DNA of 64,000 bases, from contig JBHLNZ010000003.1 of NCBI GenBank assembly GCA_048941015.1, forward strand, positions 1-64,000, read 5' to 3'. The first letter of the stretch is position 1. Every line of letters begins with the position of its first letter. Made by a program: the position numbers and the translations under genes. This DNA comes from Promethearchaeota archaeon (GTDB lineage: Archaea; Asgardarchaeota; Lokiarchaeia; Sigyniarchaeales; SOKP01). The notes under the pieces are model-generated. The model had not been told where the DNA came from. It did no database searches and worked only from the letters and a program-made list of their open reading frames with translations. Below, piece after piece: positions 1 through 6,644 of the stretch.

Positions 1-614
<614 letters not shown>

Positions 615-738
615 AATATATTTTTGAAGCCTATCGCATTGATTAAATTTATCTATCTTAAAGGAAATGTTTCTTTTTAGGGTTCTTAATTATACTTTCT
701 TCGGTTATAATTAGTTAAATTATAACTACATATTTTAT

Positions 739-812
739 ATCACATCTATGAATAGACTCTTCATTTAACGGTCAGATCCCGTAATCCAAGTTCACACCGG
801 AATAGATGCGAT
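739..812 (-). other. Structured element in 16S pre-rRNA leader with box D/C-like K-loop
   Basis: 11-bp stem ATCGCATCTAT/ATAGATGTGAT enclosing CTGA-7 nt-ATGAAGA on the rRNA strand. Confidence 0.45.
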
Positions 813-922
813 TTGCCAAGATAATATTAAGGTTTTATTGATTTTAAATTTTTTTATTTTCTTCAAGGAAGAGAACTATGAATTTATAAATTTTCGGAGT
901 TTAAAAATCTATTTTTATAACA

Positions 923-1960
923 ATGAATACAATTAAAAAACGATTGAAAAGATTAAAAATGGATTTAAAAGAAAAGATTGGGATTCATCTAGATCAAATA
1001 AAACAGTTAAAAGGTGTTGAGAATGCTGTATTAACACAAAGAGATGGTAATCCAATTCAATCCGCTGGAGTTTGGTTTTCAAAAGATGAGATTTTTAACG
1101 TTAGTTCTGCAACAAGTGCAATCTTTAACGTAGGAATTCATTTACACCCAGATGATTTAAAATATATTTTAATTGAAGGTAAAAAAGCAAAAATTTTAAT
1201 CGCACCACTGAATAGTCCCTTACATCATTCTCTAAACAAGATTTTGGAACAACAAGGAATTCTAGATAATAAACACGAATTCTTTATCGCTATCACTGCT
1301 CAACCAAATACAAACTTGGGAGGAATATTTTTACAAACAGGGGAATGTCTAAAAAAAATAAAAACTACCTTAATTACTTCTGGTGAGTGCTTTAAACCCC
1401 CTCTTATTCAATTTGATGATCAAAAAATTCAAAATATTATCAAGGGATTTAATTTAAAAGATAATGAAGATTCGAACTTAAGAGTTTCTTCATTTTCTTT
1501 AAGTTTATCTGAACAGATCTCGATCGAGTTAAGAAAAGTCTTGAATAATTTTTCTGTAACGGTTCCTGATTTGAAATTTGCATATATAACAATCGAGGGA
1601 GGATTTGTTGCTTCAAAAATTTTAAAATCTTTAAATTTAGATTACATTCATTTAGATAATATTTCAGCAATGAGTTACTCTTTATTCCAAACAGCAAACC
1701 GATGTGCATGGTTATTAAAAAAAATGAATGCTGAAAGCATATTGTTGGATTGTGAAAATTCATTTCAGTTCATTTTTGGTTTAGGAAAAGCAATATTTGG
1801 AACTGAAATTAGTAAAGGAAAACAAAAATTAGGTTTAATTAGATTAATATTACCTCAATTTTCAAATAAAATTAGCGCTCTAATAAAGCAAGCCTCTGAA
1901 ATTCAAGAACAAAGAACATTTGATATAAAAACTCTCTTAGGAGAATTAGTGATAAAATAA
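923..1960 (+). CDS. Tandem roadblock/LC7 (MglB-like) domain protein
   Basis: Two roadblock-like repeats: GVENAVLTQRDGNPI...VSSATSAIF and DLKFAYITIEGGFVAS...ISAMSYSLF...LGLIRL. Start may be the ATG at 959. Confidence 0.8.
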   Translation: MNTIKKRLKRLKMDLKEKIGIHLDQIKQLKGVENAVLTQRDGNPIQSAGVWFSKDEIFNVSSATSAIFNVGIHLHPDDLKYILIEGKKAKILIAPLNSPLHHSLNKILEQQGILDNKHEFFIAITAQPNTNLGGIFLQTGECLKKIKTTLITSGECFKPPLIQFDDQKIQNIIKGFNLKDNEDSNLRVSSFSLSLSEQISIELRKVLNNFSVTVPDLKFAYITIEGGFVASKILKSLNLDYIHLDNISAMSYSLFQTANRCAWLLKKMNAESILLDCENSFQFIFGLGKAIFGTEISKGKQKLGLIRLILPQFSNKISALIKQASEIQEQRTFDIKTLLGELVIK

Positions 1961-1972
1961 TTAGGTGACTTT

Positions 1973-2869
1973 ATGAACTTTTTTGAAGCTCTTGAGAGAT
2001 TGAAAAGAACGGATGCTGCGTTAATTGTTTTTAGTTTATTAGATAGAATACCAATAATTGTTTTTGGTGATAACGCAAGTCAAATTGACTCTTTTTTAAT
2101 TGAAATGTCAGAATTATTACACTTCAGAAAAGAATTTGTATTTTATACTGACTTTATATCCTTATCAGAATACCTTGATTTAATTCAAAATGAAAGTATT
2201 GATTATAATTCTCAAAGAGCACATATAAGGTGTCCTAGTAATGTTGCTTTAAAAGCTTTAAATCAATTCGAGAGATTTGATTCCTGGATAATTGGTATTG
2301 AGATTCCTAATCAGAATGAGAAAATAAATTACTTTAAAAAAAGTATTAAAAAAAAGATTAAATCTTTTTTATGTATCTCTCTGCTTTCGGAAACAATAGA
2401 GGTAATATTAGAAGGATTAATCTTAAAACAACTTGACTTAAGTCTTGAACAGAATCTCCTCCAAAAAATATCTCAAGATACTGAAAAATCAGTAGCTAAA
2501 ATGAAGAGAGTTTTATCTGAGAAAATAAAATCTAATGATTTTGATGTTGATCTGATAGAATCTTTACTAAATTTTGATGTTGAGAAAGAAGAGTTAAAAA
2601 AAAATATTATTAAGAAGGAAATACAAAATTTTTATTCTGGTTCAAAGAGAGCATTTTTTATTTTTTCGAGATTGAATTTATTAAATAATATCGAATCGAA
2701 TACAAAGATTGGAAGTAAAACTCTTTTAGAGACAATTGATTATGATGATGCTCCTATAGAACGAATTATATCTTTTATTAATAAAGAGTGGGGTGAAGAT
2801 TTTATGAATTTAATTGAAAAGGTAAAAAGAGTTAATGCTCTTGATAGTATGCAATCTTTATGGGGTTAG
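1973..2869 (+). CDS. DENN-like (cDENN/dDENN) domain protein
   Basis: FSLLDRIPIIVFGDNASQIDSFLIEMSELL and SWIIGI resemble the cDENN 'LLlErriilvs...L...v.al.sLl' and 'PfiiGv' motifs; GGTGA SD upstream. Confidence 0.55.
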   Translation: MNFFEALERLKRTDAALIVFSLLDRIPIIVFGDNASQIDSFLIEMSELLHFRKEFVFYTDFISLSEYLDLIQNESIDYNSQRAHIRCPSNVALKALNQFERFDSWIIGIEIPNQNEKINYFKKSIKKKIKSFLCISLLSETIEVILEGLILKQLDLSLEQNLLQKISQDTEKSVAKMKRVLSEKIKSNDFDVDLIESLLNFDVEKEELKKNIIKKEIQNFYSGSKRAFFIFSRLNLLNNIESNTKIGSKTLLETIDYDDAPIERIISFINKEWGEDFMNLIEKVKRVNALDSMQSLWG

Positions 2870-2877
2870 AATAAAAT

Positions 2878-3471
2878 ATGATTTTTGATTATGAAAATAA
2901 GACTTTACAAGTCAAAATAGTATACTATGGTCCCGCAATGTCAGGAAAGACAACTTCGATAAAATACCTTTTTTCTTATTTTAACAAACAAGATAAATTA
3001 GATTCTATTGATAGTTCAGTTGGAAGGACTTTGTTTTTCGATTTTGGAGTATTACATTTCAAAGGAACAGAATGGAGTTTAAAATTCTTAATTTATTCTG
3101 CAACAGGACAGGATTTTTATGCGAGCACTCGGCCTGCAACTTTAAATGGGGTTGATGGTTTGATCTTTGTTGTTGATTCAAGGCTTGAATATATAGATCA
3201 TAATCTTCGCTCTTGGAATGAACTTAAAACTCTCTTTGGGAATGAAATTTATAACATACCAATTGTAATCTCATTGAATAAGTTTGATTTAAAGGAAGTT
3301 CAATTGAGAAATAATACTCCTTTTCTTAGTAAAATTAATTTAGTAGCATATGATAATATATCTATTAAAAGAACAGTTGCTATAAATGGATATGGTATCT
3401 TAGATTCATTTAATTGTCTTATATCATCAATATTTCCTAATTTAACAATTAAAAGGAGTATAATAAATTAA
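2878..3471 (+). CDS. MglA-like small GTPase
   Basis: KIVYYGPAMSGKTT (G1), RTLFFDF (G2 with Arg finger), ATGQ (G3), NKFD (G4). Confidence 0.9.
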   Translation: MIFDYENKTLQVKIVYYGPAMSGKTTSIKYLFSYFNKQDKLDSIDSSVGRTLFFDFGVLHFKGTEWSLKFLIYSATGQDFYASTRPATLNGVDGLIFVVDSRLEYIDHNLRSWNELKTLFGNEIYNIPIVISLNKFDLKEVQLRNNTPFLSKINLVAYDNISIKRTVAINGYGILDSFNCLISSIFPNLTIKRSIIN

Positions 3472-3479
3472 GATTACTA

Positions 3480-3662
3480 TTAATCTTCAATTTTTAGATA
3501 CATATTTTTAGAAATTCTTTTAATATAACCTTGTTTATGAAACTGTTTCAAAAGGTTTCTTACTTTTCGTACTTCTTGAGCATCAATGCCTAGAGCACCC
3601 ATAATTTGAAAGATTGAAAATTGTTTTGGTAATTCTTCCTTAATACTGTTATATAATCCCAT
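3480..3662 (-). CDS. Small winged-helix-like protein
   Basis: VRNLLKQFHKQGYIKRISKNMY is a wHTH recognition helix and wing; ATG at 3662 preferred over TTG at 3674. Confidence 0.6.
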   Translation of the reverse strand: MGLYNSIKEELPKQFSIFQIMGALGIDAQEVRKVRNLLKQFHKQGYIKRISKNMYLKIED

Positions 3663-3771
3663 ATTAATCTGCAAAATTATTGTATATATTCTGAATAAAT
3701 AAAATAATAGTATCTTTTTATAAATTATTAATTTATTACAAAATTTATAAGATTTTTAGTAAGGTTTTTAT

Positions 3772-3844
3772 AATCCTCAAAGTAACTATAAAAATTCATT
3801 CCTATTTTGCATAGGTCATCCTTGTCTGTTATTTTCATTGAATT
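3772..3844 (-). ncRNA. Box C/D guide sRNA, predicted target 23S helix 69 (A1913, E. coli numbering)
   Basis: AATTC-AAT-GAAAA(C)-TAACAGACAAGG-ATGA(D')-CCTAT/ATAGG stem-AAT-GAAT(C')-TTTTATAGTTACT-TTGA(D)-GGATT; guide complementary to AGTAACTATAA. Confidence 0.7.
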
Positions 3845-3934
3845 ATTATAACCCTAGGTAAGCCCTAGTTTAAACATATTATTAAAGAAAATTTTAAAAT
3901 AAATTAGTTAAATTTTATAAAATTTCATTAATAT

Positions 3935-4615
3935 TTAAAAATCTGGATTCTCTTTACTGAAATCATCGCCTATAGGTGCTTTCCCATCACCATATATCTG
4001 ATATAGACCAGTTCTTCTAGCACATTCACTGAAACTACGATATATATCCTTTTTTTTCTCAAATAATGCACAAGTCTTATATATAATAGGATTCCAAATA
4101 TATAATTCATGATCAGGTTCATGCCAAAGTTTCTCATCCTTTAATACTTGTTTGAAATCTTCTTCTCCTATTACTTCATTAAGATCTTGTTTATTTAGCA
4201 TTGTTATTAAAGGAATTTCATTAATAAGTTTGCCTCTTGTGACATTCTTTAACTCTTTTAGAGATTCAATATTATCTTCAAAGAAATGTGTTTGAGAATC
4301 AACAACAAATATAACACCATCTGTCCCTTTGAATATCTTTTTTCTTAAAGGAGAGAACCTGCTTTGGCCAGCAACCGTGTAAACATGGTAAAAAACTTTA
4401 TTTTGTTTTGTGGATTGAAAGATACCTCTATCAAAATATAAAGTAGATCCGCTTGCCATTGAGATCTTTGTTAAATTACCTGTTGGGATAATATCTTTTT
4501 TTTGTTCTTTTGTTAATCTGTAGAGAGTATCAACAATCGTTGTTTTACCTGAGCCCCCCATTCCCCAATAAAGAATTTTTATGTAAATGTTATGATCTGC
4601 TGTCCATCGTACCAT
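3935..4615 (-). CDS. MglA/Arf-like small GTPase
   Basis: KILYWGMGGSGKTT, STLYFD, TVAGQ, NKQD motifs. Confidence 0.9.
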   Translation of the reverse strand: MVRWTADHNIYIKILYWGMGGSGKTTIVDTLYRLTKEQKKDIIPTGNLTKISMASGSTLYFDRGIFQSTKQNKVFYHVYTVAGQSRFSPLRKKIFKGTDGVIFVVDSQTHFFEDNIESLKELKNVTRGKLINEIPLITMLNKQDLNEVIGEEDFKQVLKDEKLWHEPDHELYIWNPIIYKTCALFEKKKDIYRSFSECARRTGLYQIYGDGKAPIGDDFSKENPDF

Positions 4616-5381: not shown

Positions 5382-6407
5382 ATGAAAGAGCTTTTGTCAA
5401 TTAATGAAGATTGTGTGAGATGTCCAGAATGTAAGAATAAGACAACCATGAATAGTTTTGAGATAATATGCAGTAATTGTGGGTTGGTTATAAACAATTA
5501 TTTTAAGGATTCTGCTTACCTTTTTAACTGTTCAGCATCCAAGACTAATCTAAACAAACAGTACGTCGCTTTAGGAGAAAGAACAGACTTTATTGGAGGT
5601 TTAGGAAGTTTTATTGATTTTGAAAATTCAAAATATTTAAAAGATAAATCTGGAAAATTATTGGCTCCTAATGAGCAAAAATTATACAGGAGATTAAAAA
5701 AAAATTACGCTCAATTTTTAAGAATAAAGAATCATGAAACCGAATATCGAATATTTAATATCTTGAATAAAATTTCAACATATCTTAACCTAAATAAGAA
5801 TATACGGAATAATGCAGCATACTATTATAAAAAAATTATAAAAAAAGAAAAAGACATCATTAATAACATCTCACTTATTGCTTTTTGCATTTTTTATGCA
5901 ACAAAGAAAGAATATCATAATGCTCCAATAACGATAAATGAAATTGCTAGCGCTTTTCGAAATTTTGGGCATAGAGTTAATCCTAGATTGATTCTAAGAG
6001 ATGGCCTTAAATATAAAAAACATTTAAATTTAGATAGCTATCCTCATAAAAGCGAAGATTATTTGATTAGATTAATTAATGAAGTAATTAGCCATAAAGA
6101 TTTGGGCATTCGAATGTTGAATAAAGGTTTAAAAACATCTAAACTGGAATATCAAAATAAACTCATAAAAAAGGGCCTAGAAATTTTGCATAATTTATCA
6201 AATTGGCAACGTGGAGGGCGTAACCCTTTTATATTAACAGGAGCAGTAATATATTTAGCGGATAAATTATTAGCTAAGGAATGTAAACAAAAATCAGTTT
6301 TAACTCAAAAATTGATATCAGAAGCAACCAAAATCGCGGAATATTCAATACGAGATCATTATGTAAATTTACTTAAACCTACTTTTATAAATGGGGAGAA
6401 GAAATAA
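5382..6407 (+). CDS. Divergent TFB/TFIIB-family protein
   Basis: Zn ribbon CPEC...CSNCGLVI; two cyclin repeats; GRNP, TQKLISEATKIAEYSIRDHY. Confidence 0.85.
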   Translation: MKELLSINEDCVRCPECKNKTTMNSFEIICSNCGLVINNYFKDSAYLFNCSASKTNLNKQYVALGERTDFIGGLGSFIDFENSKYLKDKSGKLLAPNEQKLYRRLKKNYAQFLRIKNHETEYRIFNILNKISTYLNLNKNIRNNAAYYYKKIIKKEKDIINNISLIAFCIFYATKKEYHNAPITINEIASAFRNFGHRVNPRLILRDGLKYKKHLNLDSYPHKSEDYLIRLINEVISHKDLGIRMLNKGLKTSKLEYQNKLIKKGLEILHNLSNWQRGGRNPFILTGAVIYLADKLLAKECKQKSVLTQKLISEATKIAEYSIRDHYVNLLKPTFINGEKK

Positions 6408-6531: not shown

Positions 6532-6644
6532 GCTTCTGTAGTGTAGTTCGGTCAAACTAATATTGGAATTAAAAAGAAAGTTAGGATCACGCATGCGAGG
6601 CTCTCACCCTCGCGACCCGGGTTCAAATCCCGGCAGAAGCACCA
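6532..6644 (+). tRNA. tRNA-Glu(CTC) with 35-nt D-loop intron (6556-6590); CCA encoded
   Basis: Acceptor GCTTCTG/CAGAAGC, anticodon arm CGAGG-CT CTC AC-CCTCG, GGTTCAAATCC; BHB-like helix GGTC/GATC with bulges AAA and ACG. Confidence 0.93.

Follow-up and report, generated by a model that had tools for sequence, protein, structure and literature searches.

Does the group of genes at the start of contig JBHLNZ010000003.1, from an assembly of a Promethearchaeota archaeon (GCA_048941015.1), encode a small GTPase together with the proteins that regulate it? The window analysed here is the stretch from position 1 to 64,000 of this contig, 64,000 nucleotides with a low GC content (~25%), and its host is an Asgard archaeon. 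Close to one end of the window, three co-directional genes encode a tandem roadblock protein (gene 1), a protein predicted to have a DENN fold without a longin lobe (gene 2) and an MglA-type small GTPase (gene 3). On balance we favour the view that this operon most likely specifies one self-contained small-GTPase switch, made of a tandem-roadblock GTPase-activating protein (GAP) or platform, a DENN regulator and the GTPase. An earlier note, written from the sequence alone, had proposed a switch of GTPase, GAP and guanine nucleotide exchange factor (GEF), with a second GTPase facing the operon, as a possible antecedent of Ragulator-Rag-FLCN logic.

Inheritance of the operon as a unit

An open reading frame (ORF) listing reproduced the coordinates that the earlier note had given for the four genes and confirmed the tight spacing of the first three. 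The gap between the roadblock and DENN-fold genes is exactly 12 nt and includes a Shine-Dalgarno-like GGTGA ahead of gene 2, and 8 nt separate the DENN-fold gene from the GTPase gene. A six-frame search over 301 genomes of the phylum detected the DENN-fold gene in 163 genomes when the single sequence was used and in 169 when a profile was used, nearly always as one match. The gene occurs in the family of the window (f1), its sister family (f2) and families f3, f5, f8, f9 (74/76 genomes), f11, f14, f17 and f28. Family f24 gave weak profile matches only (5 of 21 genomes, E ~1e-4 to 1e-5), and the gene was not found in, for example, f7 (0/28), f16 (0/11) and f29 (0/11).

Gene order was compared by mapping the window proteins onto the ORFs of 48 loci sampled across the DENN-bearing families. 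The roadblock-DENN-GTPase order is intact and co-directional in 47 of the 48 loci, representing at least ten families, and the remaining locus ends at a contig edge; the conserved order on which the earlier reading depended is therefore present. The gaps between the roadblock and DENN-fold genes range from -8 to +15 nt, with one of 107 nt, and those between the DENN-fold and GTPase genes are mostly -50 to +21 nt, the starts having been set at the first start codon of each ORF, so that some overlaps are perhaps overestimated. Many of the gaps are overlaps of 4 nt, which suggests translational coupling. The trio is passed on as one unit.

The operon and a 16S rRNA gene diverge, ~310 nt apart, and a divergent 16S neighbour was also seen at two loci of the sister family (L031:7578-9073 and L045:7440-8930). 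The operon promoter is presumably located in the AT-rich region between them. In the window's family, many metagenome-assembled genomes (MAGs) have the start of the DENN-fold gene ~1.2-2.2 kb away from the end of a contig, as expected if assembly breaks in the rRNA gene. Such breaks probably explain the apparent absence of the operon in 8 of 27 genomes of the same genus.

The three proteins and a proposed switch

A PDB sequence search found MglA to be the best solved relative of gene 3 (E 5e-26 and 2e-23), with Arf, Ran and Rab at ~1e-4. The protein carries the P-loop GPAMSGKT, an Arg finger (R50) next to the G2 threonine (T51), the G3 motif SATGQ, with the glutamine at position 78 (Q78), and the G4 motif NKFD. 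In a HMMER alignment with Myxococcus xanthus MglA, R50-T51 falls on R53-T54, the intrinsic Arg finger and G2 Thr of that protein, S74-A-T-G-Q78 falls on T78-V-P-G-Q82, and the segment between G1 and G2 contains a single 2-residue gap, in line with the intrinsic Arg that had been proposed for this GTPase. MglA group 1 is characterized by an intrinsic Arg beside the G2 Thr and by a Thr or Ser that replaces the Asp of G3 (Wuichet & Sogaard-Andersen 2014; PMC4316618). Gene 3 likewise has Ser for the Asp of DxxGQ (SxxGQ) and keeps the catalytic Gln, and it always shares its operon with a tandem roadblock gene, the coupling looked for in a group 1 protein. At all loci examined across the phylum, the operon GTPase keeps the Arg, [ST]xxGQ and the P-loop without exception. 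Together, the motifs and the best matches to solved MglA structures favour, at the level of sequence, an MglA group-1-like rather than a Rab-like GTPase, which agrees with the presence of 'MglA1' among previously defined Asgard GTPase groups (10.1101/2024.02.28.582541). Gene 3 is not Rag-like, since it is a single domain of 197 aa without a C-terminal roadblock; its Pfam match to Gtr1_RagA (E 0.021) was below the cut-off.

An operon GTPase with 65-71% identity to gene 3 is also encoded on contigs DATKTW010000036.1, DATKTW010000131.1 and JANBVM010000002.1 (loci L104, L107 and L130), which are labelled as bacterial ('Candidatus Nanopelagicaceae bacterium' and 'Patescibacteria group bacterium'). 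Most likely, these contigs come from Asgard archaea and were mis-binned into bacterial MAGs.

In the gene 1 protein, Pfam detected Robl_LC7 at residues 21-98 only. The AlphaFold2 model (mean predicted local distance difference test, pLDDT, 80; predicted template modelling score, pTM, 0.77) contains two domains with the alpha-beta-beta-alpha-beta-beta-beta-alpha order of the roadblock fold, and its structure was compared by applying VIA-align to the Foldseek matches. The first roadblock domain (RB1) spans residues ~15-152 and the second (RB2) ~197-326, joined by a linker with a conserved FKPPL motif. The model thus confirms the predicted fused pair of roadblock domains, which are MglB-like, and its pTM suggests a defined arrangement between the two. 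An alignment of 21 gene 1 orthologues from genomes across the phylum showed conservation from end to end, stronger in the N-terminal half, and no invariant Arg that could act in trans. The true start of the gene may lie at 959, because orthologues of the same genus begin at the second Met. A G-x-P at the turn between strand 1 and strand 2 is a general feature of Roadblock/LC7 proteins. For this reason we disregarded, and gave no weight to, an invariant D41-G42-x-P44 in this turn of RB1, a place analogous to the one where GAP-type longins have their 'GP motif' (PMC12290439).

For the gene 2 protein, searches of Pfam, NCBIfam and PDB sequences and a profile search against the PDB returned nothing meaningful, and no Pfam DENN-clan profile matched above noise. 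Its close homologues (n=394) are all annotated 'hypothetical' and all come from Asgard MAGs, and, among 1.8 billion representatives, it has 89 clusters when identity is set at 50%. AlphaFold2, provided with an alignment of 47 diverse gene 2 sequences, yielded a confident model (pLDDT 90.6, pTM 0.86). The model opens with two short helices and continues into a core of alternating beta and alpha elements (strands 28-32, 53-57, 83-87, 105-110, 132-137 and 142-147), which has the three layers of a cDENN domain (~residues 1-150). The core is followed by an all-helical lobe (~157-275, helices 157-273) that is dDENN-like. Since strand 1 begins at residue 28, the protein is predicted to lack an N-terminal longin (uDENN), as had been suspected. 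Among proteins of 523-2000 aa we found no form in which gene 2 is fused to a longin, a roadblock or a GTPase, which is weak evidence in the same direction; relatives of 320-434 aa owe their length to insertions only, with no match to a roadblock profile, a GTPase profile or Pfam.

A Foldseek search of the PDB with the gene 2 model was uninformative, and the fold was compared by an exhaustive VIA-align search. DENN lobes ranked top, each covering model residues 1 to ~275: FLCN (3v42_B and 6nzd_H; Z 13.2, alignment length 186), DENND10 (8p0v_M; 12.7, 190), SMCR8 (6lt0_B; 11.9, 195), C9orf72 (7o2w_A; 11.4, 208) and DENND1A (6ekk_A; 11.0, 184). Independent support for the DENN fold came from a feature search of the ESM Atlas, in which 12% of the members of the protein's own Asgard clusters carry PF15019 (C9orf72-like), and in which the families retrieved beyond these clusters belong to the DENN clan only (Folliculin_C/SMCR8_C at 0.91; SPA, DENND11, Avl9 and Afi1 at 0.84-0.90). 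By its predicted structure, gene 2 is a cDENN plus dDENN protein without a longin lobe, and the cDENN-like character claimed for it passed the fold test. Three invariant or nearly invariant Arg residues (R25, R52 and R82), each just before one of core strands 1-3, lie along one edge of the sheet in the model and form a candidate functional patch.

How the three proteins might work together can be proposed from the established MglB mechanism, in which the intrinsic Arg and the Gln of MglA are brought into position by the roadblock dimer (Miertzschke 2011, summarised in PMC4316618) in a complex of two MglB and one MglA, MglB itself giving no catalytic residue (PMC4316618). By analogy, the tandem roadblock protein would be a single-chain pseudo-dimer, the equivalent of the MglB homodimer, that binds the GTP-bound GTPase 1:1 and stimulates hydrolysis by positioning the GTPase's own R50 and Q78. 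The stronger conservation of RB1 fits an asymmetric interface. The DENN-fold protein would engage that GTPase too, by itself or while docked to the roadblock protein, and would act as an exchange factor or co-regulator; in the docked case the roadblock protein would substitute for the missing longin/uDENN lobe. Longin and roadblock domains are related, and the topology of cDENN is P-loop-like (PMC3521125). The analysis shows which domains the proteins have, which catalytic motifs they carry and that their genes are inherited jointly; the formation of a complex, the GAP role and the GEF role are what we infer.

The role of the DENN-fold protein is the least certain part of this proposal: an activity as a GEF, as in the DENNDs, and a share in a bipartite GAP or scaffold, as in FLCN-FNIP and C9orf72-SMCR8, are both conceivable. 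The second option, taken to its end, gives an account of the operon that we regard as doubtful, in which the roadblock and DENN-fold proteins would form one bipartite longin-DENN regulator of the FLCN/SMCR8 type, split between two chains, with a net GAP or scaffold activity, no GEF, and spontaneous nucleotide exchange. FLCN is at the top of the structural ranking, but DENND1A and DENND10 are within ~2 Z units of it, so the fold is indifferent to the distinction between GAP-type and GEF-type DENN proteins. The operon has no need of an Arg supplied in trans either, since an Arg finger is already present in the GTPase, and the roadblock protein has no invariant Arg to offer.

An origin of gene 2 outside the DENN clan is very unlikely. 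The protein would in that case be a degenerate P-loop or RecA-like domain, resembling secretion ATPases, with a helical tail and an adaptor function, and its likeness to DENN proteins would be one of topology only. ATPases do align to the gene 2 model, but their alignments end at or before residue ~220, whereas those of the DENN proteins reach residues 271-285 and so include both lobes, and VIA-align ranks 1-4, 6 and 7 are held by five different DENN proteins. No Walker A or Walker B motif is conserved in the alignment of 47 sequences, the language-model features retrieved DENN-clan families only, and Liu et al., as far as their text describes it, had made the DENN call by profile methods.

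Convergent GTPase and flanking genes

A second MglA-like GTPase gene faces the operon (Table 1). Its product is nearest to MglA (E 8e-21), shares 37% identity with gene 3 and has the G3 motif TVAGQ. At the position of the Arg finger that marks MglA group 1 it has Ser, as had been noticed before, and 13 full-length orthologues have this Ser without exception. The gene lacks its own roadblock gene. It adjoins the operon, as does the small gene between them, only in the window's family. Its own family was found in 25/25 genomes of f1, in 2/2 of f2, where it lies on other contigs, and in single cases in f8, f12 and f20, and a search at E<=1e-35 gave no member of it in four families that carry the operon (f5 0/4, f9 0/26, f14 0/19, f17 0/4). 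Because of this distribution, the view that the convergent GTPase is a fourth component of the operon was rejected. The Ser-variant GTPase is a separate paralogue, restricted to certain lineages. That the Arg-type and Ser-type GTPases would pair on the roadblock platform, like RagA and RagC on Ragulator, is most improbable, since the conservation of the convergent gene (85-98% identity within f1) and its invariant exchange of Arg for Ser are set against its restricted distribution and adjacency, its position on the opposite strand with another gene in between, and the absence from both GTPases of the C-terminal roadblock through which Rags dimerise. A further Ser-variant paralogue with 68% identity lies on another contig of the window's genome (G000:C62:34478-35125, minus strand), and most genomes of f1 have two copies of the Ser-variant GTPase.

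Table 1. Positions of the operon and its neighbours within the window.
Feature	Position	Strand	Remarks
16S rRNA gene, 5' part	1-613	-	Rfam SSU_rRNA_archaea
AT-rich intergenic region between operon and divergent 16S rRNA gene	614-922		
Tandem roadblock protein gene (gene 1)	923-1960	+	345 aa; start perhaps 959, giving 333 aa
Longin-less DENN-fold protein gene (gene 2; fold predicted)	1973-2869	+	298 aa
MglA group-1-like small GTPase gene (gene 3; class from sequence)	2878-3471	+	197 aa
Small protein gene	3480-3674	-	58-64 aa; orthologues in f1 loci, E 1e-20 to 1e-40
AT-rich gap	3675-3934		260 nt
Second MglA-like GTPase gene, Ser variant	3935-4615	-	226 aa
TFB (TFIIB-type) gene	5382-6407	+	
Intron-bearing tRNA gene	6532-6641	+	110-nt match to full 71-position model

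The small gene is convergent with the GTPase gene of the operon, 8 nt from its stop, and is kept in most loci of f1. An internal ATG is its likely start, giving a protein of ~60 aa, for which Pfam offered weak winged-helix-like hints only (AbiEi_4 and the MCM_C winged helix-turn-helix; E ~0.06-0.09). The AT-rich gap that follows extends to the stop of the convergent GTPase gene, and Rfam at the gathering threshold gave no match in it. The 10 f1 loci that extend that far all have the TFB gene downstream of the convergent GTPase, and it was also seen near the operon in one genome of the sister family. The tRNA gene adjoins it.

Relation to known systems and significance

The operon is an instance of one that is already known and ordinary for Asgard archaea, as judged from the text description by Liu, Makarova et al. 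(bioRxiv 10.1101/2020.10.19.343400, Fig. 5b; Nature 2021). That description has a LAMTOR1-like member of the Roadblock superfamily, a small GTPase that is Rab-like and of a family distinct from Rag, and a DENN-domain protein, and presents the module as a strong candidate GEF analogous to FLCN (10.1101/2020.10.19.343400). Shared with the operon described there are the three components with an adjacent, co-directional, non-Rag GTPase, the conservation across the phylum and the analogy to FLCN and Ragulator. It differs, within what is described, in that the GTPase is called Rab-like there and is MglA group-1-like by sequence here (E 5e-26, Arg, SxxGQ), and in that the roadblock protein is here explicitly a tandem of MglB-like domains, as modelled. 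Thus, of the interpretation in the earlier note, the domain calls stood, the second GTPase proved not to belong to the conserved unit, and the idea itself had been published before (Liu et al. 2020/21). A combination of GAP, GEF and GTPase in one switch, antecedent to Ragulator-Rag-FLCN, is plausible. The literature search found no paper with an experimental test of the Asgard operon. Tran et al. (2024) reported that the GTPase genes of MK-D1 are generally not in operons with roadblock or longin genes, to which the operon is an exception.

The MglA/MglB polarity switch of Myxococcus xanthus and Thermus thermophilus (3t12, 6izw) employs a homodimer, whereas in the archaeal locus the roadblocks are fused in one chain and a DENN-fold gene lies between the roadblock and GTPase genes; in the literature surveyed, no DENN-fold partner is known for bacterial MglAB systems. 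The eukaryotic longin-DENN regulators, namely FLCN-FNIP2 (6nzd, 6ulg), C9orf72-SMCR8 (6lt0, 7o2w), DENND1 (6ekk) and DENND10 (8p0v), have their longin (uDENN) N-terminally in the same chain, unlike the predicted gene 2 protein, which also has no Pfam DENN match and no fused forms among those searched. Their clients are Rab, Rag or Arf GTPases, whereas the client here would be MglA-type, and no conserved trans Arg finger was identified in the operon. In contrast to the Ragulator-Rag system, the GTPase lacks a C-terminal roadblock domain for dimerisation and does not belong to the Rag family, and two fused roadblock domains stand in place of a five-subunit scaffold.

These comparisons allow a tentative evolutionary reading. 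The roadblock protein and the longin-less DENN-fold protein may be a tripartite DENN module in split form, with a roadblock domain in the place of uDENN, that regulates an MglA-type GTPase. The operon might then be a living intermediate between the MglA/MglB switch and the longin-DENN regulators (FLCN/FNIP, C9orf72/SMCR8 and the DENNDs); the latter would have descended from it through the fusion of genes and a switch to another client GTPase. Liu et al. had already put forward the core of the idea, to judge by the text of that work; new would be its demonstration and the link to MglA.

DENN domains were long thought to be restricted to eukaryotes. What is added here is another instance of the operon, a client GTPase that by its sequence is MglA group-1-like with an Arg finger of its own, and a Ser-variant neighbour that is not part of the unit. 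The three proteins are small (197-345 aa) and soluble-looking, which makes them a practical target for the first biochemistry on an archaeal DENN protein. An operon of archaea in which a DENN-fold protein, a roadblock protein and a small GTPase are combined is among the clearest candidate precursors of the logic by which eukaryotes regulate GTPases, leading from MglAB to longin-DENN proteins, Ragulator and FLCN, a significance that is to be credited to the published discovery by Liu et al.

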